From Barthelona sp. PCE (lineage: Eukaryota), in assembly GCA_040285745.1 (NCBI GenBank), contig JAUFOR010000008.1, positions 1,798,001 through 1,862,000 of the forward strand: a DNA stretch of 64,000 nucleotides, in the 5' to 3' direction. The position numbers and the translations under genes were made by a program. Numbering within the stretch: the stretch's first letter is position 1; the number at the start of each line of letters is the position of its first letter. This document shows, in pieces, positions 46,098-64,000 of the stretch. Below the pieces are notes generated by a model. It was not told the origin of the DNA, did not search any database, and was given only the letters and a program-made list of their open reading frames with translations.

Positions 46098-47267
46098 TTA
46101 TTGAAGTCTTAGAGATGCGGCGGCAGCAGATAATGGGTTATAAACAACTTCTTCTTTCTTTTGATCTTCAAAACTGAGATTAGTAACCTTTGTTTTGTCC
46201 ATTCTAAATGCAGTCATACCAGCTAAGGAAGAACCAGCAGCAGAAATGGCAGTCATTGCAGCACGAGAATATCCTTCACGAGGTTTTTCATATTTTCCTC
46301 TTTGTACTTCTTTATAAAGCCAAATGTAAAGAATAAGTAATCCAATAATTAGAAGAATATCAAGTGTGAGATGAGTTTCACATACCCAAGCGGGTTCAGG
46401 ATTAAATACTTCAATAATCTTGATAATTAATAAGATAAAAGCAATTAAACACATTGCCATTTGACTCATCGAAATTGTACCACGCAGTGGAGGTCTTTCC
46501 CACATTAAGAAAAGAATAAATACAGATGCTAAAAGTATTATTAAAGCATCTAACCATTGAATAGTCCAACAAAAACCTGATAAACCAAATCCATTAAGAT
46601 TATTCACATATCTGCAAGTTTTTTCACTTAAATCACCTAGTAAACTTTCAAGATGTGAATATTCATCAATGAATACTGCATGATCTTTTGATGAAGCAAT
46701 ACGATGGAATGTTGCATTATGACTTTTTGCCTCTGGACCAACACCAATAGTATAAATTTCAACTTTTTTCATTTTTGATGCATAAGCAGCTTCTTCTGCC
46801 GCAGTTGCATTGTTTGGTTGTCCATCGGTCAATACAATCATTACATGATGTGATCCATAACCAGTTCGACCATGAGCATCAAGCTCTAATTGACCTAGTC
46901 GAAGTCCAGCTTCCAAATCTGTCAAACCTTTGATAGGCTCTGTCCTGTCAATGGCCTGCTCAATTACACAAGGTGTTCCAGTTAAACAAACTTCACTACG
47001 TGCTCCAGTACTAAATTGAACAACACTCATATGTGTTGCAAAATCACTAACGCTGAAATTGTACACAGCATTGCGTGTGAAGTCAAGAATCTTGTCCCAT
47101 GCATCGGTAGATCCTGTATCTGTAGGATTAAAAATTGAAAGGGAAGAATCAAGCACCATAATTACATCAATGGGTGCGTTACACACAGGCTGGTTGGTTC
47201 CAGTAGTATCAGCAGCATTAGCAATACCTAAAAGCAAAGTAAACAACAGAAAAATATATACTTTCAT
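46098..47267 (-). CDS. von Willebrand factor A (MIDAS) domain membrane protein with three C-terminal TM helices
   Basis: Signal peptide; DVIMVLDSSLS (DxSxS), VVQFS, GLTDL, IVLTDG, IYTIGVG; then three hydrophobic segments. Confidence 0.85.
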   Translation of the reverse strand: MKVYIFLLFTLLLGIANAADTTGTNQPVCNAPIDVIMVLDSSLSIFNPTDTGSTDAWDKILDFTRNAVYNFSVSDFATHMSVVQFSTGARSEVCLTGTPCVIEQAIDRTEPIKGLTDLEAGLRLGQLELDAHGRTGYGSHHVMIVLTDGQPNNATAAEEAAYASKMKKVEIYTIGVGPEAKSHNATFHRIASSKDHAVFIDEYSHLESLLGDLSEKTCRYVNNLNGFGLSGFCWTIQWLDALIILLASVFILFLMWERPPLRGTISMSQMAMCLIAFILLIIKIIEVFNPEPAWVCETHLTLDILLIIGLLILYIWLYKEVQRGKYEKPREGYSRAAMTAISAAGSSLAGMTAFRMDKTKVTNLSFEDQKKEEVVYNPLSAAAASLRLQ

Positions 47268-50068: not shown

Positions 50069-53000
50069 ATGCAAACCAGTCATCTTATATCAGAGATATG
50101 TGCTGGGAAATTGGCCGAACATTTTAACCATTCGAACTCAAAGAATTACGTTCAATCATATTTTAATCTAAAAGAATTTCGATTGGCTTTCAATACACTT
50201 GCAGCTGGACCGGTGGGATCATGTATTAACATTTTTGTGCTGGATATTCCCTCTTATTTAAGGAATAATACCGTTACAATGTCAACAAATGATTTTGGTT
50301 CACGTGCTCCATCTGCTCTCAGTTTTATGAGCAATGAACTACTTGAAGGTCCTGACACCGAGTCAGAGGCATCTGGATCAGAAGATGAATACCCAGATAA
50401 ACTTGGAGGAATCATTGAGGAAGGCCATGTTAGTGAAGAAGATATCAAAGAAGGGACTTCAACATTCCTTACGGCTGTTGATGAAACTGTAGCTAAGGCT
50501 GAGATGGGAGAAAGAGTCCCATCGAAACCGAAAATTGATGTCTCCGACACGGATTCAATTAAAAGTGATAGTATGATCCCTTTTACGCTAACACTTGAAC
50601 CACATGAGTGTCCAGTTTTTTATGTTATCAAGCGTAGTGCGCTGTTCATCGAGTCAGAGCCGCACAAATCGTTGCAATTCGGTTTTATTGATGGGAATTT
50701 TTATGATTTTGTACGTTTCAGTGCTGAACACGTTTTTAACCCAATGGTAACTAGTGTTGCTAAACATCAACTGAGCAACATCAACCCAACACATATGAAT
50801 CAATTCAAAGAAGCAGGTACGGAGTTTAGTCAATCTATTGATGAGGTGGAGCAGACTGCTAACACTTCGTTTAGACTTGCTCAACCTGCACCAACATTGG
50901 AGGGATCCTTAAAGAACGCCGTCACAGCAGCGGCAAACGATGCTGTCGTTGACCAATGCGTTGAATTGGTAGAAGAATGGTGCGAACAAATTGATGCATG
51001 GCTTGAGCTAGATGCCAATATTTTTGAAGCACGTGCTCGATTCAGACCCATGTATATCGGAGCTGAGCTTAAATTCTGGAAAGAGAGACAGATGACATGT
51101 CAAGTCATCTTTGATCAGTTGAAGGAGAAGACGTCTCGAAGTTGTATTAGTGTTCTTGTAGCTGCCCGAAGCAGCAGCATCAAGCATTGGCGTGAGTACG
51201 AGCAAACATTACAAGATGCCATGATCATCGCTAAAGAAAATGTTCGTGCACTTCAGCCAATCAGTCGTATTATTAGTGAGATGCAAGACTGGAAGCATTT
51301 TTCCAAAAAGAGGAGTTATTTGGAGCGTCTCTGGGAGAGCGTCGTTAGTTTAGGTCATTCGACACGAAAATACGCTGATCGCAAACAATTTCATTGGATC
51401 TTGGGTTCAGTGTTCGATGCAATCATTCGTAACATCTGTGATATAATCTTTAAATCCCCTGCAAGGTCAGTTCGCGGGTTATGGGAGTGCAGGGAAGTTA
51501 AAATCACAGTTTCTTTAATGGAGCAAGCTTATGATTATATGCTCCTCATAAAAAATTCTTTTGCTGATTTGAGGAAAGATGTACGATCTAAAGTTCATAT
51601 TCCTGAAAGATCAATTGTGCCATTTACAGTGTTCTTTGATCATTTTTCTCGTTTTCAACGGGTGATGACTTTTGCTTACATTTATTCTGATGTTTTCAAG
51701 GTTTTGAAACTTATGTTCCCCAATCGAATTTTTTCAACCGTATTTGATGATTTTATTAAGTCGCGTTTTGATCCACTCTTTGGCTACGACGAATCAGCTC
51801 AGGAAGTATTCAATTCTGTAGAGAATCATGTTGAAGAATTCGAAGTGGAATTGCCAGATCTCCTATTTAAATCATTCGAATTGGTTTCAAAATCAGTACC
51901 AGTTAAAATGAAGTATCTTCTTAGTTTCTCCTCGCTCGTTTCTCGTCCTGCTCTTATCGAATGTTTGCGTACTCTCGCTATACGCTGTAAGCAGGGGTTT
52001 TACACATGGATGAATTCAGTAGAAAACGAGATATCACATCTTGTCCATGATGTACGTAATTTTAGTGATAAGCGCACAACTGTTTATGCATATAACATGC
52101 ATTTGCAGAAGTTATCAAACCCTTTCAAATCTTTCACGAAGTTGAAGGAGTGTGGCATGTTGTTGCATGAAGACTTCACAAAGGTTGCTGATAAGTATAA
52201 CATCCTCATTGATCGACTGAGTGAATTCGTTGACGATATGCTTAAGACTTGGATTCACACCACTTCCTTTCACACATCCATGTTATCACAACCACTGTTG
52301 ATGTATGATAAGGCCAAGCGTAAGTTATATATTAACAATGAACGTGAACTCTTGACGTTTTACAAGGAGTTTCAAGGATTTTTCACACTCAGTTCATCAG
52401 AGTTTGTTAATTTGCCAAAGAATCGGGAGATTTCATTGTTTTTACGTAATATATCAACATTTTCGAACTATCACTCAAAAATGGAGGAATTACTGAAAAT
52501 CAGACATATTGTAACAAACAGTATACCTGATCAGGCACGTGATGTGTTCCTCCCTCTTCTTAGCCATGCTGAAATTGCACTTCGAAAGGCGACCAAGAAC
52601 TTGAACTGGGTATCAGTTTCTATTGATAGTTATTTTGAGAATTGTTTCAATCTTTTTAATGAATTGAACGAGAAAATCATTAACTTTAATTTACGCATTG
52701 CAGAACTTTATGACATTGGTCGTTCTTTATGCAGAATGGTGCTTTTAAAGGCACCTTCAACTTCATTGAAAATTGATCCAACAGTTACAATTGATGATTG
52801 GGTTGATTCACAGTGTAATTTTCATGATTCAATTGAGCCTCGCATACATGATGTATTCAAAGGTTTTGATAAAATGTACTTCAGTATGCTTGAGTGTTAT
52901 AACCCTGAATTTTCTGGAACTGAACATGCTAATCCTGAGACGGTAAAGGCTTACATTAAGAACTTTGTTGTAACCGTTGCCAAAGTCAGTATGCTCACTT

Positions 53001-56000
53001 GTATTGACAGAAACATGAGAAAGATTGAGAAATTGTTCTTCGGATCTGACCTGGAACAGAGCATGAATGCAAACTTTTCAAATGTTTCTGAATTCTTCCC
53101 TCAATTCTCGGTTGAGCTCATACTTGAGATCCCAAGAATTATTCCTAACATCAGTGCGTTGTATCTCCATCACGAATGCGTCCGTGTGGTTAAGTCAATG
53201 ATCAACGTCTTCCGATCTCTGCCAAAATTGACAATTGCTGGTGTTCAGGAATACTGCGAACAGGCTGCCTATCAGGACGATACGTTTAAGCATGTTGATT
53301 CAAACGAACAGTCGATCAAGTCCATCACTGAAGAAATTGAGTTTCTTGATAGTACACTCAATTCTCGAGTCCAATCTCCATCATTGGAAGATTCAATGAA
53401 GATAGCAGAAGAATTCAAGAGACAAGAGCTGTCAAAGGAAATGGTAAACTCAGGCGAGTTTAATACAGTTGGGACAAATGATGAAAATAATAATGAGGAA
53501 AATGTTGAAGAAGAAGCTGGTCCACTTGCTGGTGGTCTTAGCATCCCCTCTAATGCTTTCGTCAATAATGAAGTGCACCTCAGATCGCTCAATGAGCTTT
53601 CTTTCATGACTAACGTTCTTGAAACTGTTGGACCTGAGCAGTTCGAATCAACAGTTTCTATGGTTTCTGATTTCTACATCATTATTCTGGAATCGGACGA
53701 ACTATTATTCCACGGTTTGCGTTTCCGTCACCTACTGAAGGTTTTAGATCGTGTTCAAGATTTTATTGATGATTTCGTCAGCAAGGTAAGTTGGATTTAT
53801 GTCAAAGATCGTGATGAATTTTTCAAAACTTCAAAAATGATTCGCTGGTCATTATTTGATTTTGAAGTACACTTTGGTGAGCTACTTGAGGTGGAACGTC
53901 TCATTTCTTCATGGGATGATATACTTCATGTGAATTTTACTTCTTTCCAGTTCAATCTGGAAGTATTGAAAGCTTGTTTGATAAGTGAGCTTCACTCTTG
54001 GTCCGCACTTTATGCCTCTGTGTTGCGCAACCGTATCTATGAGAAGCTTTATTACTTAGTTGTCGATTGTTCTTCTTATCTTAAGAAGTTTGAGATGGAT
54101 ATCGAAACCCTTAATGATTTCAAAGATATTTCTATTATCCTTGATCGTTTGAATACTTCAGAAGTCGAGAGGGAACTTAGTATCGTTGATATTAGACAAG
54201 GTTATCGTTTGTTAGGTGATTATAACTATGGTATTCCACTTGAAGCCACTCAGGTTGCAGAGGACATTGCTGCAGATTACCGCCAAGCAATTCGCGATCA
54301 TTTCATTCCACTGAACGAATACTTTTATCAGTTTTGTTTTAAGTTGGTGGAACAAAAAGCTATGAAAGAACAAGTTGATATCGAAGATTCAGACCTTGAA
54401 AGTTTTGATGATAACCGCAGTCAGTTTTCTGTCGCATTATCTCATGTATCTAGTTCACAACGCTCTCTTCGTAGCCTTAAGCCCAATAGTTCCAGTTTCA
54501 TGAAGAAGAAGTTCTTTGGTTCAGGTACTGTACATGACGACAAAAATATGGCAATTCAAAACGCTGCTGCTCTTACAATTCAGAGAGTGTGGCGTGGCTA
54601 TGTTGTTCGTCGTAATCTTTCTGAAACTGCTGGTTTCATTATAGATATCAGTTCAGAAGAAGAGGAGGAAGTTGTACTCCCTAATCAGGAAGGTGTAACT
54701 CCTGCTGCAGCTGCTATGCATCTTCCCTTGGAAGAGATGGCCTCATTGACCGAGTTGAATGTTAACGTTGAGAATATCGAACACTCGTTCGATGACATCT
54801 TTGAGGATTTCAATCATTTGCCTCTTTTTCCTGGTTGTACTATTGATGTAGTCAGCGAGGCCCTACTTCTATCGACCGTTATACAACTCGTTGGATGGAC
54901 CAAAAAGCGTGAGATCAAGGTGAAGAAGACCCTAACCAATCATTCAGATCAACATCTCGCAGCTCTGTTGGCCATCTCCCGTACTGTTAAAGTTGACTCT
55001 GTGAAGCTCAAGAGTGCACTTGACTCGTCAGGTCCCCTGGTGCAGGGTATCAGCGTTCAGGAATCCATTCAAAGATTTAAGGATTTTGCCAAGACTCTTA
55101 AGACCATCAAAAAGCAAGTTGATGAGTATCAGTCATCTGCAAAGTTCTTTAACCTCTCCAAATTGGACCTTCCTGAGCTGGACCAGCTTGAAGTTGACAA
55201 CAAAGTGTTTGTAACCATTTTTAGTTTGCATCAACAAATTGATGGACTTGATGAACGTTTCCGCAGGAGTCTTGTAAGTGGAATAGATTTATATTCATTC
55301 AACCACTCATTTGAGCGATTGAGAACAGCTTTCAACAAGCTTGATCTTGGATTTTACCGTGATGTTGCGGTTGTCAATCGTATTACAAATTCTTTGCGTG
55401 TCAGTGGCCAGATTATTCCCATCATTCAGATCATCAACGATGCTGAACTCAACGTTATTCATTGGAAGAAGCTATTAGAGCTCTTGTGGAAACTAGCTGA
55501 GAAACCTAATAATTCAGAAAGCTACAATCTCAGCGCTCTCTGTGTTGAAGAGCTTGTTTATCTTGAGGTATGGAACTTCCGTGATTTCGTAGAACGATTT
55601 TTGCTTGCAACAGCTCGTGAGAATGAGATGGAAAAGAATTTGAGCGATATACTTGAGAATAACAGAGCCAAATGTTTTTTCTTTTTTAAAAACTGTTACA
55701 ACACTGAATTCTTTAACAGTGATCGTTTGGAAAAAGAAATATCTGGATTCAAGACTGATGCAATTCTTTTACAAGATTTTGATGTCACAAATAACAAAAT
55801 TATTCAAATGGAGAATAATGATAGCTCAAAGGTTCTTCCTTCTCTTAAGATGCGTGTTAATTTGTGGTGCAAAATTTTCACTACAGTTAGCACTCTCATT
55901 GAGGATCTGCTTTCAATTCAAAAGCGTGTCATCAGCTTCTCAGAGCTTTGGCATGGTATCATGCATGAGACAGCTACTTCTGAGGAATATTCAATTACAT

Positions 56001-59000
56001 CAAAGGTTATGCAATACTGGAACCAGCTCATATCACTGAGTTATAAGCGTCAAAAGCTTATGCTTGACTTCTTAATTGATGTTCATTCGTTGAGTTTCCA
56101 GCTCAGTAACGCAACAGAGGTTGTATTCCCTCAACTAAGGGATATTTTAGTCGATGCCGAAAAAATGGTTGCGGTTTATCTGCAGCGAGTCGTGAAGCAT
56201 GTTCCCCGTTTAAGTTTCCTACCTCCTGATCTCCGTCAGCGTTTTCTATGTGATATTCCTCGTTATCTTGATGAACGCTTCTTGCACCGTGATGTTCTAT
56301 CCCTTTTGTTCCCAAGTGTTATTGGATTAATTTTTTCCGATAAGGAAGAAGAAGATGAGGGTATAGTCACCGGTCTCATTGGTAACAACGGTGAGACAAT
56401 TAACTTACCTATGAAAATTGTTCTCATGCCTGATTTAGATCTGGAAGAGCTATCACCTTCGATTAAGCACTTTATGCTTCTTAAACTCAACCAAACACTT
56501 AATCAATTCACACAGGCGATTGAACTTTATGTTAAGTCATCTATTTTTAATCTGTTACAGAATTTTGAGACTGATTCGGATAATAGCCTCATCAATGTTG
56601 ATGATATTAGTGGTTCATCATCGCAGACAGTCATCATTGCAACTTGCATTGTTGTCTGGAAACACACAATCAGTTGTTTCAATACAAATGGGGATTCGGT
56701 CAAGTTTAACAAGCAGCAACTGGGTAGAATCATTACAAAGCTTAATCATGACATTGCATTATGTTGTGTACATTTCCATGAGTTCCATGCAGGTGCTAAT
56801 AGCCAAGTTCGTAACTTAAAGTCAGCAGATGAGTTGATTCGTAAACAACTTGGTTCGGTTCTTTACTTCTGGAGAACCAGTCTTATTCAAGTTGTCAAAG
56901 GAAAGATGAACGCTGATGAATTTTTCAAACATCATCTTCGCTTTAGAATGATCTATTACGACAAAATGGATAAAGAACGTTACTATGGGAATTTTGAGGA
57001 TTGTCCCTCTGGTATTGTTTCAAACTATAAGATACAATACAATCTTAGTGCAAGCGAGGAGGACTGGACCGACTACGGATACAATTATGTATCTGTCATT
57101 AATGAATTCCCTCTCTGTCGTGAAAATAAGAAGACGGTTGATAATACATTACGTTTGTTTAAGTTACCAACTTGTCCGTTGTTTAACAGTTGGATGGGTT
57201 CCAACCCTCTTGTCAGCAACATTGAATTGTTGACCGGTCATAAGTTCTTCAAACTTAACTGTGTACTTGACCCTGATGTTATTATCATTGAACGTGCTCT
57301 CAGAGCTGCAGTCACACAAGGTTATTGGATTTGGTTGGCAAACGTTCATCATCTTAACGTGGACACTCTCCGTTCTCTCTCAGTCGATATTCGCTCATCC
57401 CTTAAGATGAAGGGGAAGGAAGTTTTGTTCGACAAGGTTTTACACAAGGTCAGTGAAAAATTCTGTGTTGTATTTTCAGCACATGGTCGATTAGGACCAA
57501 AATTTTCTGCTATCCGACCTGTTGTTACTCCAATTGCTATTCGTAGGCTTGATTTATCAGTTCGTCTCCCCCTTACACTTTTCTTTAGCGGGTTCATTTT
57601 CGCTTTTGACATAGCAAAGCGTATTCTTGAATTTAGACGTATTTATGAGGCTTTATTCCATCGTAGAATCTCACAGCCTGAGCTTAACGTTGTAACATCT
57701 GTATGTATATATCAGCTTATGGTTAATGCTCCCTCTGTTCCCAAACTGTTCCATCTTTTGAGCACAGTAGAAAACATTACTATATCTAATGAAGAAATAC
57801 GCAATAATTTGTTCCGTCATGAACTCACTGCTATTGCCGCTTCATTCAGACATACGCTGTTCCGCCATACTCCCCCTTCTAGGGATTTCACAAATGATTT
57901 CCGAGTGTTGCAACCCAAAACTCCAGAACCAAAAGAAGAGGAAGTTGCCCAAAGAAGAAAACCAAAACCCACACAAAAGAACCGTAAGAAGAATCAACGT
58001 GTCGAGAAGAAGCGTGGTTTTTCTGTTGAAGTATTTGAAGGCGAACACTCAATTTTAGATTTAGCAATATGCAACAGTTTCCAAATGAGTGAGATTAAAG
58101 ATCTTCTTACAATTCCTCATCCTTTCTTTTTGGAATCCGAAGATAGCAATAACGTTTTCTCAGAAAACTTGCAGAAGGTTTGCAAAAAGTCTGATTTACC
58201 TGCTCCTTCTGACTCTTTTATTGAAGTTTGCGGTAACATATACAGAGATTTGGTATCTTATAAAGTTCTTGTTGTCGGTGGAGAGGCTCAGACAGGCAAA
58301 ACAACAATTACACGTTGCGCTATAAACACTGCACGTGAACTTGGTGAAGATTGGTTGTATGATTATATCCCAGCAGATCCGAAGAGTTTTAGCAGTATAC
58401 TGAAGTGTTTAGAACGAGCAAATCATACTGATAAGCCTATTCTCTGTCACTTAAATACATTTTCATCTCGTACAAATATGGATCTTGTGAATTTCGCTCA
58501 TCTTGTTCGTCTTGGTGATCCTTCAGCGTTTTTGAGTAACGGCAATGCATTGAGCATTCCTCCCAACTTCCATCTACTCATTGAGTGTTTGGATGTTAAA
58601 GGATGGCAACGTCTTGAACTTTTTTGTATCACAATCCCCAACCATGCTTTGGATTGGCGAAAACTTGTTGATCATTTCATCGATAAGATCCGTATTGAAG
58701 AAAAAACTGCTCTTGACAATCTAGCTATGGAGGGTATATACCCTGAATCATCTGTTGAGATGTTAGAGGAAAATTATAATCAGTGGGTTCAAACCCGCAA
58801 AGCTCCAAATTCATTTGCAACAAACACTGCCTACTTAATGGCATCAGGTGTTGATCCCAGTGAAGATGTTGAGCCTGAGAGTGTTGAGCCAACTTCAGCT
58901 CATACTGATGAAAGTGATGATGATGGTATCAACGTATCGACCGCTGAATCCTTAGAGAGACATCCTCCAAGTGGGCATCCCAGTGGCATCCCACGAGGAC

Positions 59001-62000
59001 ATCCTGGAGGTCACCCCAGTGGTATTCCAATGGGTGTTCCTCTTGACATGCCAATAGGGCATCCTGGACATATAACCATTGGAAATACCCCAATAGCATT
59101 ACGTTCTCCTTCTGGCTCTCGTCCTTCAAGTGGTATATCATTATCTAGAAAGAATAGCGCAGCTTCTTTCATGTCAACTGTTGATGATAAAGATGGTAAA
59201 TGTGAATCCAGCGCGGATGTTCTTCATTGGCTGATCAACAAGTTTTTTGAACCTCTTTATGTGCATATTTTCAGTGATCTTAGTGATGGTGATGTGAATT
59301 CAAATAATCCACCCAGTATTAGAGTTACATGTAGAGCTTTATTATCTATTCTTGCTGGTGTTTTCCATTGTATTCACACAAATACATGCCCTTTATCATA
59401 TCCATTAAATTCTACTCACATTCGTCGTCTATTCTTCTTCGCACTTCAATGGGCGGTTGGTTCATCAACTGCTACTTCTGATCGTATCAAGATTTTCTGT
59501 TACATGGTGGATGTTCTAAAGATTCCGGGTTCACCGAACTTCTATCCAATGACCGAAGGATACAAAGGCCGTGTTTCAATGAGTGTTGTTCGTCGCGATC
59601 CATACTTCTTCAGCTTTGATGTCATGAGTGGTGAATGGTCTCCACCTTTCAGACTATTCGAGAGTCGTCGTCTTACAGATGTTTACAAACTTGGTGTCCG
59701 AATGAAGGAGCGTATGCTCGAATTCTCAGAAGTAAGTTTCCCACGATTAGTTCGAAATGAATACGTGACTCAGTTTTTGTACCTTGGTGCTATCTCAAGC
59801 GTTGGTGTTGGTGCATTACCAGTCACATTCCTTGGTAATGCTGGTGTAGGTAAGACTGCTATGCTTAATGGATTGTTTGACAAAGATCGAACTTCAATAT
59901 TTATGTCAAGTATGCACTCCATCGATCTTAGTTCATTTACTTCCAATTCTCAACTCAAATCTCACCTACTAGAGTACTGCAGTTTCGTCAAGCCTGGTGA
60001 ATATGAGGTGTCTAAACCTGATTTGAGATTTGGATCACATCTGGTAAAACTGGATCGAGCTAATTTCTCAAGAGTTCAGGCTGTTTTATATGAACTTGCT
60101 CAGAACAAATCAATGATCTTGGATGAGGATCTTTCTACAATCACTGTGAATAACTTCTTATGGATGTGCTCATTCGATTCATCTAAGCTTTTCAATCCAC
60201 GTACTAAAGCAATGTTTTTCTCAATTCAACTCGACTACATTAATCAAAACGCTTTCGAACATCTCGCTTTTGAATGGCTTAATACTCACTTTACATTGTC
60301 ACGTGGCTTCAGCTCTGATATTTGTGAAACTTTACCAAAACAAATTTCTTATTGCTTCAGTGTTGCAGCTAATATTTTTATGGGTTTGAGCAAAACGCGT
60401 GTAGGTTTCACTCTCTCTTTTGATGCTTTCGTGCAAGTTATCCGTGGCCTTTTAAGTTATCCAGTTCACAAGAATTCAAACATCAATGAGATTCTTCGTA
60501 TTTATTACAGTGGTTTTATTGTTTGTATCTCACAGTTTGAAGATGAACATATTGAAAAAATTACTAGTTACATCAAGACTTTCTACGCTCAGAACTTTAA
60601 CTGCACAGAAGAGTTTATTGATTCCCTTGACAAAAACATAGTCATGCCACTGGGTTTTTACGGAAAAGACGGTAAGTGGGAGATGAAAATGGTAACGGTG
60701 GATGAAATTTTTGAAGTTGTTAAAAAGGAAATCCGTGTATTCACTTACAGTAATGACTGGAGAATTAAACTAGATGTATTTAGGATTGCTTTCCTATTAC
60801 AATCACGTCACTCTTCTTTGATTGTTTGTCTTCTTGATCGAAAATACTGTAATTCAGAGCTAGAAAATGTCATTCCTGGTCTTGTACATGATATCTTAAT
60901 GTGTTTACTTAAGCACTTTGGTTTCAATCATATTGAATTCCATCGTCGTCTTAACTACAGGGAATTGAGTAAGTTGGGTAAGAAGAAACCCACATATTGT
61001 ATAGTTGATGCCAGTATTTTGCGTACAAACTTCCGCACCATTTCTAAGCTAATCAATTCAATTGATTACAAAGATACTGATATCAAGCTCATCTTCCATA
61101 TGTCAATGGAGGACAGTCAACTCATGCCTTTGTATCGATCTGATTCGCGTTTCGCTTCAAAATCTCTGTTTACTAAACTCAATCTACCAACACTGACAGA
61201 CTACTACCCTAATTGCATTGACTGTATTCATGAGACTATCGATAAGGATGCTATGTTCTTGCGTTGTTATGAGCAGTTTAAGGAAACAATGCCAGAACTC
61301 CAATTTAACAGTCTTGAAACATGGCTGCGTTACTTTGTTGAATTTGCGGTATTTTCTTTCGGTCAGGATATGTTCCCCATTGTGCATTTGGACGAAGTAG
61401 CGAGCAAATTCAGAGCTAAACAGTTACCGATGCAGAATTTCCTTGTTAATGATGTTCTACCAGAGTTCGAATCTTGGAACCGAGCTCTAAATGTGTTACA
61501 AACCAACAGTAATGAGATCCGCACCGCTTTCAATATGAACGATCCTCCTCAGAAGAAGGGGAAACAAAAACAGGCAGTAGATCCATTTACTGAGCAATAC
61601 CCACTATTTGTTAATTATGTTGATGAACTTGTGGATAAACAAGTAGCATTTGATTTGATCAATGATGTATTCCCTAAACGCATTCCAGAAGACCGTACAG
61701 CATTCCAAAATTTCCTTTCATTGGATCAAATAGATATCTTCATGAACGGTTTACAAATCGAATTCTTGCATGTTCTCAAGAAGCATAATATGTATATTGG
61801 GTTCCTGGAGGATACTCAATCTATTGTTACATCGCTTGAATCCTTTATTGAAGATATTGAATTGCTTAGAGAAGGCTCGAATGATTTCATTAATGAGCTG
61901 GAGAGTCAATCCAAGAATGAGATGAGTAGACTAACTGATGTTAGTACTAAACTCGCTACTTGTCACAACAAGGTCGATGAATATAACGAAGAACAACATC

Positions 62001-64000
62001 TCAGTGGTAAAAACGTTAAGAAACAGGAAATGGTTGTCAGTCAAACGTTGATGGAGCTTGAAGAACAGTTGAGCTTCTTAGACAGTGGTTTTTCAGCTTA
62101 CATTACCACAATCTCCGCATTGGTGCCTCTTTTGCAGGAATATGTAATCAAAGATAACTCTTCAACATGTTTGATCATGTTGAAAACACTCCACCTAATC
62201 CTAGGCGGTAGAATTGAGGATGTAGATTCAACAAATTATAAGGAAGATGTTTCTTTCTTCCAGTATGCACTGGACTTTGAAGAGAGTGATACCGTAAAGA
62301 AATCTCCACTCATTATTAACTCAAACCAGTTTTTGTTTAACATGGACATGTTCAAGCATTTTGATGACACTGAATTGACGGAGATATTGAATCTGTCTTC
62401 ATCCCCCGCTGTAGGCATCTCTAAGGTGGCTGCTCTTCTTAGTAGCGCAACCCCAATCGCCGAATTTATCAAAAATTTCGGTGTAAGTGTCCACTTCTAC
62501 TACAATCATCGAAACGAGGCAGAGCGTCTGAATCACATGGGTGAAGAACGTAATTCTAGTTCAATTGATGAGACTTTGGAGCGAATCAAGGAATTAGAAA
62601 AGGAACGTGACGGTATCCGTCGTGTATTCGAGGGTTGTTTGTTCCAACAGCACAATGAGCATGTACAAATACGCCAGTATGAGACAATTATTAAACATAA
62701 CAAGAAACTTATTGCTGATATACATAATGTTGAAGAGAAGCTTCGTAATTCATCAATTCTGTTTAAATCCCCCAAGTACCTTTTCCTCGCAATCATGTAC
62801 AGTCTCACCATCATGGTCACAACGTCGTGTGTTAACTTACACAAAGCTAAGGATATGATATTCGAGATCCAAGCATTCTTTAAAGATCGATGTGGTGTTG
62901 ATTTCACAGATTTTGATCTGGAACGTTTCTGTTTGGAAACGGACTGTATGTTCCACAACCACAGCTTCATCAAGGCACCGCTGGAAGTACAAGAGTATTC
63001 TGTCGACGTCAAGGCTCGTCTCATGGGTGCTGCTGTTCTTTCAAAGTATGCACCAGTTGTTTTGGTTGTTGAGAACCGCAGTGCTTTTGATCAATTTGCA
63101 CGCACTTATGGATCGCTGAGTGTTGAGCGCAATCCTGATACTTTCGATGTAGGTGATCTCAGTACTCAACCCATACTTATAATGAACTTGAGGAGCGAGA
63201 AAGATTTCTATATCATTGATCGTATTCAAAGTATTATAAATAAGGCCAAGGAAGCAGAAGAAGGATTCATTGAATATCTTCAACACGATAAAGTATTCCG
63301 TATATACTCCACACAACGAGTTATATACATTATTCCCAATGGTAATTTTATTCTAAAGCTTCCAAAGTGGCTCAAGTTTTGGACATTCATATTTAAGGAA
63401 AACGAAGAACTGCTTTCTATTCGTTTGCAAACTGATTTGCTTCGATTTGAGAACGGCCCATTCTTACAACAGCTATTGGCCGTTTCACAAACAACTTGCG
63501 ATCGACAAACACGTGTTTACAGACTATATGATGACTATGTTGAATTTATTTCTAATAAGAGTATGGAAATTGAAAATTTCAGACTGATGGAATCTTCAGG
63601 TCGAAAATTCATGCGGGAATTCCTCAATAGAATTGAGCGAACGGAAAAACAATACGAAACAACAAAGAAATCATTGGATCGTATCAATATCTACTTTTTC
63701 CCTTATCATGAATTTTCTGTCAAGATTGCAAAGATGTACACTGTGTTCCAAAAAACAATTCGTCTTTTTGCAAGCTCTGATATCATTCCTTCAATTGATC
63801 TCGCCAGATGGATGAGCTACATTCTTCACATTTCAGAGCCTGGTCCTGTCGCTTCAGAGAGCCGTATCAATTCACTCATTACAGGATCAAAAACTTTCCT
63901 TGAATTCCTAGTTGATCTTCTACCCTCTGAAACTCTCATGTTTGCTGGTTTATTTGTTATCATTCGCTTCCTTGCGTACGAGCTTTGTGCTGAAAAGATG
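50069..64000 (+). CDS. Highly divergent dynein heavy chain, outer-arm gamma (DNAH5/DNAH8)-like, catalytic AAA1 degenerate; 3'-partial (at least 4644 aa)
   Basis: Starts at ATG 50069 after an in-frame TAA. No ORF in this frame appears in the track and translated samples are open to the last base, so no stop is inferred. DHC_N1 block 'EEWCEQI..ELKFWKER..FDQLK..VLVAARSSSIKHW..AKENVRAL'; 'SGPLVQGISVQESIQRF'; linker 'HWKKL..ARENEMEKNL' and 'YLQRVVKHVPRLSFL'; P-loops GEAQTGKTT (58280) and GNAGVGKT (59834); stalk coiled coils at about 61800-62750. Confidence 0.88.
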   Translation, partial: MQTSHLISEICAGKLAEHFNHSNSKNYVQSYFNLKEFRLAFNTLAAGPVGSCINIFVLDIPSYLRNNTVTMSTNDFGSRAPSALSFMSNELLEGPDTESEASGSEDEYPDKLGGIIEEGHVSEEDIKEGTSTFLTAVDETVAKAEMGERVPSKPKIDVSDTDSIKSDSMIPFTLTLEPHECPVFYVIKRSALFIESEPHKSLQFGFIDGNFYDFVRFSAEHVFNPMVTSVAKHQLSNINPTHMNQFKEAGTEFSQSIDEVEQTANTSFRLAQPAPTLEGSLKNAVTAAANDAVVDQCVELVEEWCEQIDAWLELDANIFEARARFRPMYIGAELKFWKERQMTCQVIFDQLKEKTSRSCISVLVAARSSSIKHWREYEQTLQDAMIIAKENVRALQPISRIISEMQDWKHFSKKRSYLERLWESVVSLGHSTRKYADRKQFHWILGSVFDAIIRNICDIIFKSPARSVRGLWECREVKITVSLMEQAYDYMLLIKNSFADLRKDVRSKVHIPERSIVPFTVFFDHFSRFQRVMTFAYIYSDVFKVLKLMFPNRIFSTVFDDFIKSRFDPLFGYDESAQEVFNSVENHVEEFEVELPDLLFKSFELVSKSVPVKMKYLLSFSSLVSRPALIECLRTLAIRCKQGFYTWMNSVENEISHLVHDVRNFSDKRTTVYAYNMHLQKLSNPFKSFTKLKECGMLLHEDFTKVADKYNILIDRLSEFVDDMLKTWIHTTSFHTSMLSQPLLMYDKAKRKLYINNERELLTFYKEFQGFFTLSSSEFVNLPKNREISLFLRNISTFSNYHSKMEELLKIRHIVTNSIPDQARDVFLPLLSHAEIALRKATKNLNWVSVSIDSYFENCFNLFNELNEKIINFNLRIAELYDIGRSLCRMVLLKAPSTSLKIDPTVTIDDWVDSQCNFHDSIEPRIHDVFKGFDKMYFSMLECYNPEFSGTEHANPETVKAYIKNFVVTVAKVSMLTCIDRNMRKIEKLFFGSDLEQSMNANFSNVSEFFPQFSVELILEIPRIIPNISALYLHHECVRVVKSMINVFRSLPKLTIAGVQEYCEQAAYQDDTFKHVDSNEQSIKSITEEIEFLDSTLNSRVQSPSLEDSMKIAEEFKRQELSKEMVNSGEFNTVGTNDENNNEENVEEEAGPLAGGLSIPSNAFVNNEVHLRSLNELSFMTNVLETVGPEQFESTVSMVSDFYIIILESDELLFHGLRFRHLLKVLDRVQDFIDDFVSKVSWIYVKDRDEFFKTSKMIRWSLFDFEVHFGELLEVERLISSWDDILHVNFTSFQFNLEVLKACLISELHSWSALYASVLRNRIYEKLYYLVVDCSSYLKKFEMDIETLNDFKDISIILDRLNTSEVERELSIVDIRQGYRLLGDYNYGIPLEATQVAEDIAADYRQAIRDHFIPLNEYFYQFCFKLVEQKAMKEQVDIEDSDLESFDDNRSQFSVALSHVSSSQRSLRSLKPNSSSFMKKKFFGSGTVHDDKNMAIQNAAALTIQRVWRGYVVRRNLSETAGFIIDISSEEEEEVVLPNQEGVTPAAAAMHLPLEEMASLTELNVNVENIEHSFDDIFEDFNHLPLFPGCTIDVVSEALLLSTVIQLVGWTKKREIKVKKTLTNHSDQHLAALLAISRTVKVDSVKLKSALDSSGPLVQGISVQESIQRFKDFAKTLKTIKKQVDEYQSSAKFFNLSKLDLPELDQLEVDNKVFVTIFSLHQQIDGLDERFRRSLVSGIDLYSFNHSFERLRTAFNKLDLGFYRDVAVVNRITNSLRVSGQIIPIIQIINDAELNVIHWKKLLELLWKLAEKPNNSESYNLSALCVEELVYLEVWNFRDFVERFLLATARENEMEKNLSDILENNRAKCFFFFKNCYNTEFFNSDRLEKEISGFKTDAILLQDFDVTNNKIIQMENNDSSKVLPSLKMRVNLWCKIFTTVSTLIEDLLSIQKRVISFSELWHGIMHETATSEEYSITSKVMQYWNQLISLSYKRQKLMLDFLIDVHSLSFQLSNATEVVFPQLRDILVDAEKMVAVYLQRVVKHVPRLSFLPPDLRQRFLCDIPRYLDERFLHRDVLSLLFPSVIGLIFSDKEEEDEGIVTGLIGNNGETINLPMKIVLMPDLDLEELSPSIKHFMLLKLNQTLNQFTQAIELYVKSSIFNLLQNFETDSDNSLINVDDISGSSSQTVIIATCIVVWKHTISCFNTNGDSVKFNKQQLGRIITKLNHDIALCCVHFHEFHAGANSQVRNLKSADELIRKQLGSVLYFWRTSLIQVVKGKMNADEFFKHHLRFRMIYYDKMDKERYYGNFEDCPSGIVSNYKIQYNLSASEEDWTDYGYNYVSVINEFPLCRENKKTVDNTLRLFKLPTCPLFNSWMGSNPLVSNIELLTGHKFFKLNCVLDPDVIIIERALRAAVTQGYWIWLANVHHLNVDTLRSLSVDIRSSLKMKGKEVLFDKVLHKVSEKFCVVFSAHGRLGPKFSAIRPVVTPIAIRRLDLSVRLPLTLFFSGFIFAFDIAKRILEFRRIYEALFHRRISQPELNVVTSVCIYQLMVNAPSVPKLFHLLSTVENITISNEEIRNNLFRHELTAIAASFRHTLFRHTPPSRDFTNDFRVLQPKTPEPKEEEVAQRRKPKPTQKNRKKNQRVEKKRGFSVEVFEGEHSILDLAICNSFQMSEIKDLLTIPHPFFLESEDSNNVFSENLQKVCKKSDLPAPSDSFIEVCGNIYRDLVSYKVLVVGGEAQTGKTTITRCAINTARELGEDWLYDYIPADPKSFSSILKCLERANHTDKPILCHLNTFSSRTNMDLVNFAHLVRLGDPSAFLSNGNALSIPPNFHLLIECLDVKGWQRLELFCITIPNHALDWRKLVDHFIDKIRIEEKTALDNLAMEGIYPESSVEMLEENYNQWVQTRKAPNSFATNTAYLMASGVDPSEDVEPESVEPTSAHTDESDDDGINVSTAESLERHPPSGHPSGIPRGHPGGHPSGIPMGVPLDMPIGHPGHITIGNTPIALRSPSGSRPSSGISLSRKNSAASFMSTVDDKDGKCESSADVLHWLINKFFEPLYVHIFSDLSDGDVNSNNPPSIRVTCRALLSILAGVFHCIHTNTCPLSYPLNSTHIRRLFFFALQWAVGSSTATSDRIKIFCYMVDVLKIPGSPNFYPMTEGYKGRVSMSVVRRDPYFFSFDVMSGEWSPPFRLFESRRLTDVYKLGVRMKERMLEFSEVSFPRLVRNEYVTQFLYLGAISSVGVGALPVTFLGNAGVGKTAMLNGLFDKDRTSIFMSSMHSIDLSSFTSNSQLKSHLLEYCSFVKPGEYEVSKPDLRFGSHLVKLDRANFSRVQAVLYELAQNKSMILDEDLSTITVNNFLWMCSFDSSKLFNPRTKAMFFSIQLDYINQNAFEHLAFEWLNTHFTLSRGFSSDICETLPKQISYCFSVAANIFMGLSKTRVGFTLSFDAFVQVIRGLLSYPVHKNSNINEILRIYYSGFIVCISQFEDEHIEKITSYIKTFYAQNFNCTEEFIDSLDKNIVMPLGFYGKDGKWEMKMVTVDEIFEVVKKEIRVFTYSNDWRIKLDVFRIAFLLQSRHSSLIVCLLDRKYCNSELENVIPGLVHDILMCLLKHFGFNHIEFHRRLNYRELSKLGKKKPTYCIVDASILRTNFRTISKLINSIDYKDTDIKLIFHMSMEDSQLMPLYRSDSRFASKSLFTKLNLPTLTDYYPNCIDCIHETIDKDAMFLRCYEQFKETMPELQFNSLETWLRYFVEFAVFSFGQDMFPIVHLDEVASKFRAKQLPMQNFLVNDVLPEFESWNRALNVLQTNSNEIRTAFNMNDPPQKKGKQKQAVDPFTEQYPLFVNYVDELVDKQVAFDLINDVFPKRIPEDRTAFQNFLSLDQIDIFMNGLQIEFLHVLKKHNMYIGFLEDTQSIVTSLESFIEDIELLREGSNDFINELESQSKNEMSRLTDVSTKLATCHNKVDEYNEEQHLSGKNVKKQEMVVSQTLMELEEQLSFLDSGFSAYITTISALVPLLQEYVIKDNSSTCLIMLKTLHLILGGRIEDVDSTNYKEDVSFFQYALDFEESDTVKKSPLIINSNQFLFNMDMFKHFDDTELTEILNLSSSPAVGISKVAALLSSATPIAEFIKNFGVSVHFYYNHRNEAERLNHMGEERNSSSIDETLERIKELEKERDGIRRVFEGCLFQQHNEHVQIRQYETIIKHNKKLIADIHNVEEKLRNSSILFKSPKYLFLAIMYSLTIMVTTSCVNLHKAKDMIFEIQAFFKDRCGVDFTDFDLERFCLETDCMFHNHSFIKAPLEVQEYSVDVKARLMGAAVLSKYAPVVLVVENRSAFDQFARTYGSLSVERNPDTFDVGDLSTQPILIMNLRSEKDFYIIDRIQSIINKAKEAEEGFIEYLQHDKVFRIYSTQRVIYIIPNGNFILKLPKWLKFWTFIFKENEELLSIRLQTDLLRFENGPFLQQLLAVSQTTCDRQTRVYRLYDDYVEFISNKSMEIENFRLMESSGRKFMREFLNRIERTEKQYETTKKSLDRINIYFFPYHEFSVKIAKMYTVFQKTIRLFASSDIIPSIDLARWMSYILHISEPGPVASESRINSLITGSKTFLEFLVDLLPSETLMFAGLFVIIRFLAYELCAEKM
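54563..54613 (+). other. IQ calmodulin/EF-hand light-chain-binding motif inside the dynein-like ORF
   Basis: Translates AAALTIQRVWRGYVVRR, matching IQxxxRGxxxR. Confidence 0.85.
58961..59070 (+). repeat. 12-bp/tetrapeptide G-[H/I/V]-P-x repeat inside the dynein-like ORF
   Basis: HPPSGHPSGIPRGHPGGHPSGIPMGVPLDMPIGHPGH; the DNA shows imperfect 12-nt periodicity (agtgggcatccc agtggcatccca). Confidence 0.8.

Follow-up and report, generated by a model that had tools for sequence, protein, structure and literature searches.

The recognition of non-motile dyneins is very recent. Chai et al. (bioRxiv 10.1101/2025.01.18.633724) described DNAHX, a 5,272-residue heavy chain of sea-urchin sperm ('dynein-X') that is annotated as DNAH8-like and, in the account given there, branches beside the outer-arm alpha chain of that paper's own nomenclature, that is, the DNAH5/8 type. 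The authors reported that DNAHX carries many insertions, the key ones lying in the AAA4 small domain and in the stalk with its microtubule-binding domain (MTBD), that it is locked in the pre-power-stroke state, and that it pairs with another heavy chain and is found in some animals only. Its AAA1 motifs are described as non-conserved; the site still holds ATP, with Walker A largely kept and Walker B present. In the same source DNHD1, an 'orphan' heavy chain of animals, is described as being without the catalytic Walker B residues. With DNAHX and DNHD1 already known, the idea of a non-motile dynein is not new, and the DNAHX precedent lowers the novelty of further cases. What part such proteins play in the assembly, transport or inhibition of other dyneins is still an open question, and no protist example of an inactive or divergent heavy chain was found in the literature searched (main texts). 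Here we analyse a dynein heavy chain encoded on the forward strand at positions 50069 to 64000 of a 64,000-nucleotide stretch of DNA from Barthelona sp. PCE (GenBank assembly GCA_040285745.1, contig JAUFOR010000008.1, positions 1,798,001 to 1,862,000; hereafter the window), which an earlier reading of the sequence, the original prediction, had proposed as a candidate motor-dead derivative of an outer-arm gamma chain with a structural or regulatory role.

We consider it probable that this is an intact heavy-chain gene descended from an outer-arm gamma/DNAH5-type ancestor, and that its product is now a pseudo-ATPase and most likely a non-motile subunit. The tail, linker, six AAA modules, stalk region and C-terminal domain would have been kept in the canonical order and at near-canonical lengths. 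AAA1, where ATP hydrolysis powers the dynein stroke, has lost Lys and Thr of Walker A, Asp and Glu of Walker B, Asn of sensor I and Arg of sensor II. The P-loop is gone from AAA4; AAA3 keeps its own without the second acidic residue of Walker B, and AAA2 keeps its P-loop. Nucleotide would at most be bound structurally, at AAA2 and AAA3, with no ATP-driven cycle. Residues are numbered below along the uninterrupted translation that starts at 50069 (P0001); in the deposited protein (P0002) residues 3281-3302 (22 residues) are swapped for a single Lys, and later numbers are 21 lower. Coordinates of the features are collected in Table 1.

AAA1 is established as the main site of ATP hydrolysis in dynein. 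In the aligned register, all four catalytic elements of this module are replaced in the present chain. The register is that of an hhalign alignment and was reproduced independently by MAFFT. At Walker A, residues 2372-2381 read FNSWMGSNPL and the canonical row is GPAGTGKTET. Canonical residues occupy all the AAA1 columns listed in Table 1 in four of the five reference chains; the fifth, the environmental chain P0006, has CFDNLHS at Walker B. The motifs quoted in the original prediction were all located where it had reported them, once each: YGYNY at 57074-57088; the block claimed as AAA1 Walker A, PTCPLFNSWMGSNPL, at 57167-57211, and the Walker B block GYWIWLANVHH at 57320-57352, with the register of both upheld; and the blocks SGPLVQGISVQES and HFTLSRGFSSDI at 55028-55066 and 60287-60322. 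No GxxGxGK[ST]/DE pair aligns to AAA1, and there is no GK[ST] near this module. The whole protein of 5,342 residues contains two GK[ST] motifs only, at AAA2 and AAA3; the five canonical-type chains have three to four GxxxxGK[STQ] P-loops at AAA1-AAA4. In no AAA module are both Walker motifs present together.

Since AAA1 is the main hydrolytic site and its catalytic motifs are gone, the chain would be unable to run the normal mechanochemical cycle. The GxxGxGKT kept at AAA2 and AAA3 could be taken to mean that the protein still works as a motor, powered by another site (AAA3) or by unconventional residues. We regard this as very improbable, given that AAA1 is described as the main hydrolytic site of dynein (PMC2533788), that the Walker B position of AAA3 reads LDRAN, that the AAA4 P-loop is lost, and that no module has both Walkers.

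On the alignments that follow, the protein is a dynein heavy chain. Both the tail and the linker are recognised by dynein profiles of Pfam (DHC_N1 and DHC_N2, Table 1), and the linker directly precedes AAA1, with hhalign colinear. A profile alignment against four heavy chains returned by the searches matches residues 204-2872 to residues 121-2292 of a 4,501-residue chain with a probability of 99.9 and E 2.5e-31 for the single comparison, 368 of the 2,091 aligned columns being identical. Against five chains, residues 3074-3665 match canonical residues 2323-2889 (probability 96.4, E 1.1e-9). In these alignments the similarity runs unrearranged through the tail, linker, AAA1, AAA2, lid, AAA3 and the start of AAA4. 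In tests of single blocks against shuffled sequences, AAA1 gave z 6.3, with none of 100 shuffles reaching the real score, and the stretch from AAA3 to AAA4 gave z 7.7; together with the linker these served as positive controls.

Sequence searches with the motor find far less. The region of the AAA3 P-loop gives a weak match to Pfam AAA_7 (E 0.019), and when the translation was scanned in pieces AAA_6, AAA_8, MT, AAA_9 and Dynein_C gave no match at E up to 10. A PDB search with the motor region (residues 2120-3700) returned no dynein chain at E up to 10. Among 1.84 billion representative proteins, the only non-self match of residues 2250-3449 turned out to be P0006, at E 8.5e-4; as the match covers residues 2356-2525 and falls on P0006's own AAA1, it supports the AAA1 register. 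The AAA1 region (56903-57382, residues 2279-2438) also matched VDAC1 chains weakly (phmmer E ~1e-3), which was taken as chance similarity. The identity to reference dyneins is ~18% overall, and among the five references themselves the AAA1 blocks are 36-62% identical (ten pairs).

According to the original prediction, dynein blocks follow the canonical order from the tail into the region after the stalk. From the tail to AAA4 this is borne out by Pfam and hhalign; beyond AAA4 just two lines of evidence, a shuffle-controlled profile test and a protein-language-model search for look-alikes, suggest that the colinearity with canonical chains extends through the stalk, AAA5, AAA6 and the C-terminal domain. 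In the profile test, the C-terminal 1,699 residues were forced end-to-end onto the cognate part of a five-sequence profile and scored against shuffles. The real score was -590, vs. -789 ± 25 for shuffles in 20-residue windows (z 8.1) and -786 ± 29 for permutation of 100-residue blocks (z 6.8), with 0 of 60 reaching it in either case. Taken block by block, the remainder of AAA4 gave z 4.1, AAA5 to early AAA6 z 3.8, and late AAA6 with the C-terminal domain z 5.9 (0 of 100 shuffles each). Three pairs of blocks mismatched on purpose gave z 0.1, -0.4 and 1.6; here 35, 61 and 4 of 100 shuffles, respectively, attained the real score. Pairwise global alignment of the C-terminal part with penalised ends gave z 0.9 to 5.0 over five targets. 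With hhalign -glob, 58 columns of the C-terminal half were aligned. In hmmsearch this half scored -1.4 bits; the shuffles, of which 41 of 100 were reported, had a mean of -3.5 and a maximum of 2.0.

The stalk block contains weak coiled-coil Pfam matches. After AAA4, where the global alignment is weak, the protein has three insertions of at least 10 residues (14, 32 and 19) and two deletions (14 and 11); with so few insertions and deletions, the C-terminal half would keep canonical lengths. A protein-language-model Atlas search with residues 3300-4644 returned dynein AAA_7/AAA_8/MT/AAA_9 clusters as all ten of the ten best matches, with a top score of 0.91 and 197 of 256 features shared. The query includes a part of AAA3 that is detectable anyway, which makes this result a lead and not proof.

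Several observations weigh against the reading of an intact pseudo-ATPase chain. Beyond AAA4, nothing significant was obtained with Pfam, with hhalign (four or five chains) or with hmmsearch. Single-sequence AlphaFold2 models are of low confidence, with a mean predicted local distance difference test score (pLDDT) of 36.4 for the last 719 residues and of 37.1 for the 481-residue stalk region, in which long helices flank a globular part. The motif calls rest on an alignment at ~18% identity. The block limits were set by the real sequence's own alignment, and this lends it a small advantage; the mismatched controls, scoring near 0, argue against this as the source of the signal. Finally, no orthologue was found in the collections searched. 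Word-index searches with the whole length and with the tail returned three and two non-self matches, respectively, all of them distant, and a scan of metagenome contigs for relatives gave 46 pattern matches, of which none was confirmed.

As no orthologue was found, constraint is argued on three grounds: the open frame, the codon bias and the retained architecture. The claimed frame of at least 4644 codons is present, with no stop or frameshift in 50069..64000. It had been overlooked by the track of open reading frames (ORFs) because it runs off the 3′ end of the window, and listings of complete ORFs omit such frames. There is a TAA in the same frame 9 bases upstream of the ATG. Over these 13,932 bases the remaining five frames contain 185 to 531 stops, as compared with zero in frame +2, and a run of 4,644 codons without a stop has a probability of ~1e-134 at this base composition. 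The deposited full-length protein has 5,342 residues, 719 of which (~2.2 kb) lie past the window end; in the word-index search it forms a cluster of one. Relative synonymous codon usage (RSCU) of the gene correlates at 0.83 with that of midasin and at 0.82 with that of the ABC transporter of the window, and at 0.77, 0.65 and 0.51 with three unnamed window ORFs; off-frames of the region reach only 0.02 and 0.45 against midasin. An open frame of ~16 kb showing the genome's own codon bias, despite ~82% divergence from canonical chains, argues that the gene is real and intact and is under selection rather than being a pseudogene, as the original prediction had proposed from the open frame.

That the gene is a decaying pseudogene or an annotation artefact appears barely credible. 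The lack of an orthologue in the collections searched would fit such a view, as would the fact that half of the large window ORFs are orphans. Against it stand the 4,644 stop-free codons in the window (5,342 codons in the deposited protein) and a codon usage shared with conserved neighbours and not with the off-frames. Furthermore, long-term selection is needed for divergence to come close to saturation while the frame and the length of every domain are preserved.

The deposited gene model itself calls for two remarks. Its intron at 59910-59972 is probably an annotation artefact, because the segment is in frame and without a stop, and its residues align gap-free with the canonical AAA3 segment after the P-loop. 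In addition, the precomputed Pfam list of the deposited protein recognises the tail domain alone, which is a warning for annotation.

The resemblance to DNAH5/8 (outer-arm gamma) that the original prediction had noted is supported in the tail and linker. A PDB search with residues 151-2100 at E up to 10 matched five sequences, all of the gamma/DNAH5 type: 7kzm_C (Chlamydomonas outer-arm gamma), 9fqr_I3, 9e5c_7a, 9y6s_5X and 8j07_n0 (human DNAH5). No beta, inner-arm or cytoplasmic chain was among the matches. The table label of 9fqr_I3 names another protein of the entry; its length of 4,730 and the alignments show it to be a heavy chain. The class of these matches was read from the PDB rankings for three collection chains: the same five head the lists for P0006 and P0127 and follow Tetrahymena gamma-type chains in that for P0005, with beta-type, inner-arm and other chains far lower in all three lists. 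We take the DNAH5/8-type outer-arm alpha chain to be the counterpart of Chlamydomonas gamma, which fits the ranking for P0006. Six collection chains match the present protein, and four of them are gamma-type in the matching part (P0005, P0006, P0127 and the N-terminus of P0003); the weakest, P0128, is beta-type, the classes being set by PDB ranking for five of the six (not P0004). The tail is therefore of the outer-arm gamma/DNAH5 type; the gamma origin is drawn from best matches in the tail and linker, not from a tree, and the divergence of the motor is too great for it to be assigned to a class. P0003 (UniRef, a Micromonas pusilla MMETSP transcript) looks chimeric: its residues 700-4501 match outer-arm beta best (4,852 bits), and gamma (7kzm_C) is the sole chain, among those top-ranked, to align from residue 3.

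The other giant AAA+ protein of the window, midasin, served as a within-genome control for divergence. Its conservation is high (1,287 bits against yeast Rea1 chains; AAA_5 at E 2e-98), which indicates that the motor decay is specific to the heavy-chain gene. This extreme, gene-specific divergence would also suit a different history, in which the protein is the organism's only gamma-type chain, left over once ciliary motility had been lost and retained for some other purpose. Such a history shares the pseudo-ATPase reading and differs from ours in the past it assumes alone; nothing bears directly on it, and we hold it to be conceivable, on balance rather doubtful.

Insertions relative to canonical chains are found in the tail, the neck, the AAA1 small domain and AAA2, where they total ~700 residues. 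Apart from those in Table 1, there is one of 41 residues (1567-1607), and three of 17, 16 and 21 residues precede AAA1. The AAA2 insertion contains a Pro/His/Gly repeat, HPSGIPRGHPGGHPSGIPMG, at 58976-59035 on the forward strand. The neck insertion carries an IQ motif (Pfam IQ, residues 1499-1516, 24.7 bits vs. a cut-off of 20.3), where calmodulin or a light chain resembling it is predicted to bind. A strict IQ motif is present in one of the seven heavy chains compared, namely the present one, and in none of the six others.

On the present evidence the window is eukaryotic, gene-dense and almost intron-free, with intergenic gaps of 30-1,150 bp and alternating strands. The Pfam scan covered 18 of the 21 other ORFs of at least 200 residues, the three omitted ones lying inside or overlapping larger ORFs, and nine of these 18 have no Pfam family. 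The ORFs identified encode midasin, a purine/uridine phosphorylase, a PHAF1 protein, a cyclic-nucleotide-binding protein, an ABC half-transporter and a TPR protein; smaller ones encode HORMA (Mad2-like), COMM-domain and TFIIA-gamma-like proteins. The best relatives of the ABC transporter, among the 8,000 scored candidates that share most words with it, are ~32-36% identical. For a 389-residue VWA-domain protein (46098-47267, reverse strand) the nearest Atlas clusters are animal VWA domains of the matrilin and collagen type (scores 0.81-0.86, TM ~0.48). The GC content is 0.30-0.35 at 38-50 kb vs. 0.43-0.48 at 2-20 kb, and an Rfam scan of the window gave no match.

Table 1. Positions in the window of the heavy-chain gene, its domains, motifs and insertions, and of the midasin gene (aa, amino acid residues)
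Feature	Position	Strand	Basis or remark
First 4,644 codons of the heavy-chain gene	50069..64000	+	ATG start, open to window 3′ end, no in-frame stop
Tail, Pfam DHC_N1 (aa 298-855)	50960..52633	+	E 2.1e-39, 136 bits, profile 5-562 of 562
Acidic 128-aa tail insertion (aa 1085-1212)	53321..53704	+	Relative to canonical chains; net charge -21
163-aa insertion at tail-linker neck (aa 1391-1553)	54239..54727	+	Alignment to canonical chains
IQ motif IQRVWRGYVVRR (aa 1504-1515), inside neck insertion	54578..54613	+	Full IQ consensus; Pfam IQ E 1.6e-5
Linker, Pfam DHC_N2 (aa 1707-2115)	55187..56413	+	E 1.3e-14, 54.3 bits (translation scanned in pieces); block test z 18.4
AAA1 module (aa 2325-2557), catalytically degenerate as aligned	57041..57739	+	hhalign, MAFFT (same register), phmmer, block test
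Pre-AAA1 motif YGYNY (canonical YSYEY; aa 2336-2340)	57074-57088	+	Aligned register
AAA1 Walker A position: FNSWMGSN vs. canonical GPAGTGKT	57182..57205	+	Lys to Ser, Thr to Asn
AAA1 Walker B position (aa 2421-2428): IWLANVHH vs. canonical GCFDEFNR	57329..57352	+	Asp to Ala, Glu to Asn
AAA1 sensor I: FSAHG.. vs. canonical FITMNPGY			Asn column holds Gly
AAA1 sensor II: SQPELNVVTS vs. canonical HYDWKLRAIK			Arg column holds Val
61-aa insertion in AAA1 small domain (aa 2558-2618)	57740..57922	+	Alignment to canonical chains
AAA2 Walker A GEAQTGKT, retained (aa 2738)	58280..58303	+	GK[ST] scan, alignment
~190-aa insertion in AAA2 (aa 2873-3069)	58685..59275	+	Gap between two hhalign matches; Ser/Pro/Gly-rich, GHPSGIP-type repeats
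Dynein AAA lid PF17852 (aa 3089-3190)	59333..59638	+	E 8.7e-5 to 9.9e-5, 22.9-23.0 bits, cut-off 23.1; within hhalign match
AAA3 Walker A GNAGVGKT, retained (aa 3256)	59834..59857	+	GK[ST] scan, hhalign
63-nt intron of the deposited model (GTATGC...CTACTAG), probably spurious	59910..59972	+	In frame, stop-free; residues align ungapped to canonical AAA3
AAA3 Walker B position: VKLDRANF vs. canonical FFDDMNMP	60044..60067	+	Second acidic residue is Arg
AAA4 Walker A position: LLDRKYCNS vs. canonical GVGGSGKQS	60830..60856	+	Motif lost
Block pairing with canonical stalk and microtubule-binding domain (aa 3941-4361)	61889..63151	+	Block test z 4.9, 0/100 shuffles
Start of block pairing with canonical AAA5	63152..64000	+	AAA5-AAA6 and C-terminal domain continue past window; block tests z 3.8, 5.9
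Midasin (Rea1/MDN1), 4,548 aa	7583-21229	-	Six AAA_5-type modules, C-terminal VWA/MIDAS domain

As to function, the conserved gamma-type tail would dock onto or pair with other dynein chains or microtubule-associated partners, the locked ring would serve as a scaffold, spacer or inhibitor, and the IQ motif in the neck insertion suggests that calmodulin, or a light chain like it, exerts control. What the data show is the integrity of the gene, its dynein architecture, the motif loss and the type of the tail; non-motility, a scaffold or regulatory role and light-chain binding are inferred from the anatomy of the protein and the two known precedents. The original view of a non-motile structural or regulatory heavy chain gains support from the motif loss and the integrity of the frame, and we infer the role itself. 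A heavy chain that retains the full layout of ~5,300 residues under selection, yet has no nucleotide-binding motif at AAA1, is a natural experiment on what a dynein ring, linker and stalk do without cycling. A bolder proposal, which we put forward tentatively and at less than an even chance, is that a pseudo-dynein arose here independently for the third time: a gamma-type chain with AAA1 emptied would have become a static, full-length ring-and-stalk scaffold, with a calmodulin-type light chain at a newly acquired neck IQ, in a gene-dense, intron-poor eukaryote that has no close relative sequenced and is maybe without beating cilia. If the origin is independent, the loss of the motor with the scaffold kept happened repeatedly, which would indicate that dead dyneins fill a general niche, structural or regulatory.

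Comparison with known chains helps to place the protein. It is like the outer-arm gamma/DNAH5 chains (7kzm_C, 8j07_n0) in that its tail and linker match this class alone, with the same domain order and C-terminal lengths. It differs from them in the absence of the AAA1 and AAA4 P-loops, in the ~18% identity, in being ~850 residues longer and in the IQ motif of the neck insertion. Two environmental chains, P0006 and P0004 (from European Nucleotide Archive (ENA) contigs of 19 and 21 kb), are similar in that their AAA1 motifs are altered too. P0006, with CFDNLHS at Walker B and no AAA4 P-loop, is in other respects gamma-type and well conserved (2,391 bits to 7kzm_C), and P0004 has lost the P-loops of AAA1, AAA3 and AAA4 and keeps that of AAA2 alone. 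However, the present protein lies no nearer to either of them than to canonical chains. Among uncultured eukaryotes, degenerate dyneins may be more frequent than the literature implies. Both environmental genes are intron-less.

The closest described systems remain DNAHX and DNHD1. Like DNAHX, the chain has a DNAH5/8-type origin or resemblance, reaches ~5,300 residues through insertions, has a non-conserved AAA1 and is read as non-motile. One may ask whether it is a fast-evolving orthologue of the DNAHX or DNHD1 family and not an independent invention. DNAHX too comes from a DNAH5/8-type outer-arm chain and attained its 5,272 residues by insertions, and DNHD1 likewise is without catalytic Walker B residues (bioRxiv 10.1101/2025.01.18.633724). 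The animal-type Atlas clusters nearest to the VWA-domain neighbour lean the same way, though at their scores of 0.81-0.86 they give a lead on the taxon and no more. Nevertheless, we find this explanation unlikely. DNAHX, as described in that preprint, keeps ATP binding and Walker B at AAA1, whereas the present chain is without Walker A, Walker B, sensor I and sensor II there. The signature insertions given for DNAHX are in the stalk-MTBD and the AAA4 small domain, which sets it apart from the present chain, with insertions in the tail, neck, AAA1 small domain and AAA2 and only 14, 32 and 19 residues after AAA4. DNAHX is recognisable as DNAH8-like, whereas the motor of the present chain, unrecognisable by sequence search, matches among the 1.84 billion representatives itself and a single gamma-type chain, and this chain also has an IQ motif. 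Moreover, the gene-dense, intron-poor window is unlike most animal genomes. Unlike DNHD1, the protein has a clear gamma-type DHC_N1 tail, and no DNHD1-named protein was returned by the collection searches (word-index and representative set). Judged by its motifs, the present chain is more degenerate than either DNAHX or DNHD1, and it may be of independent origin.

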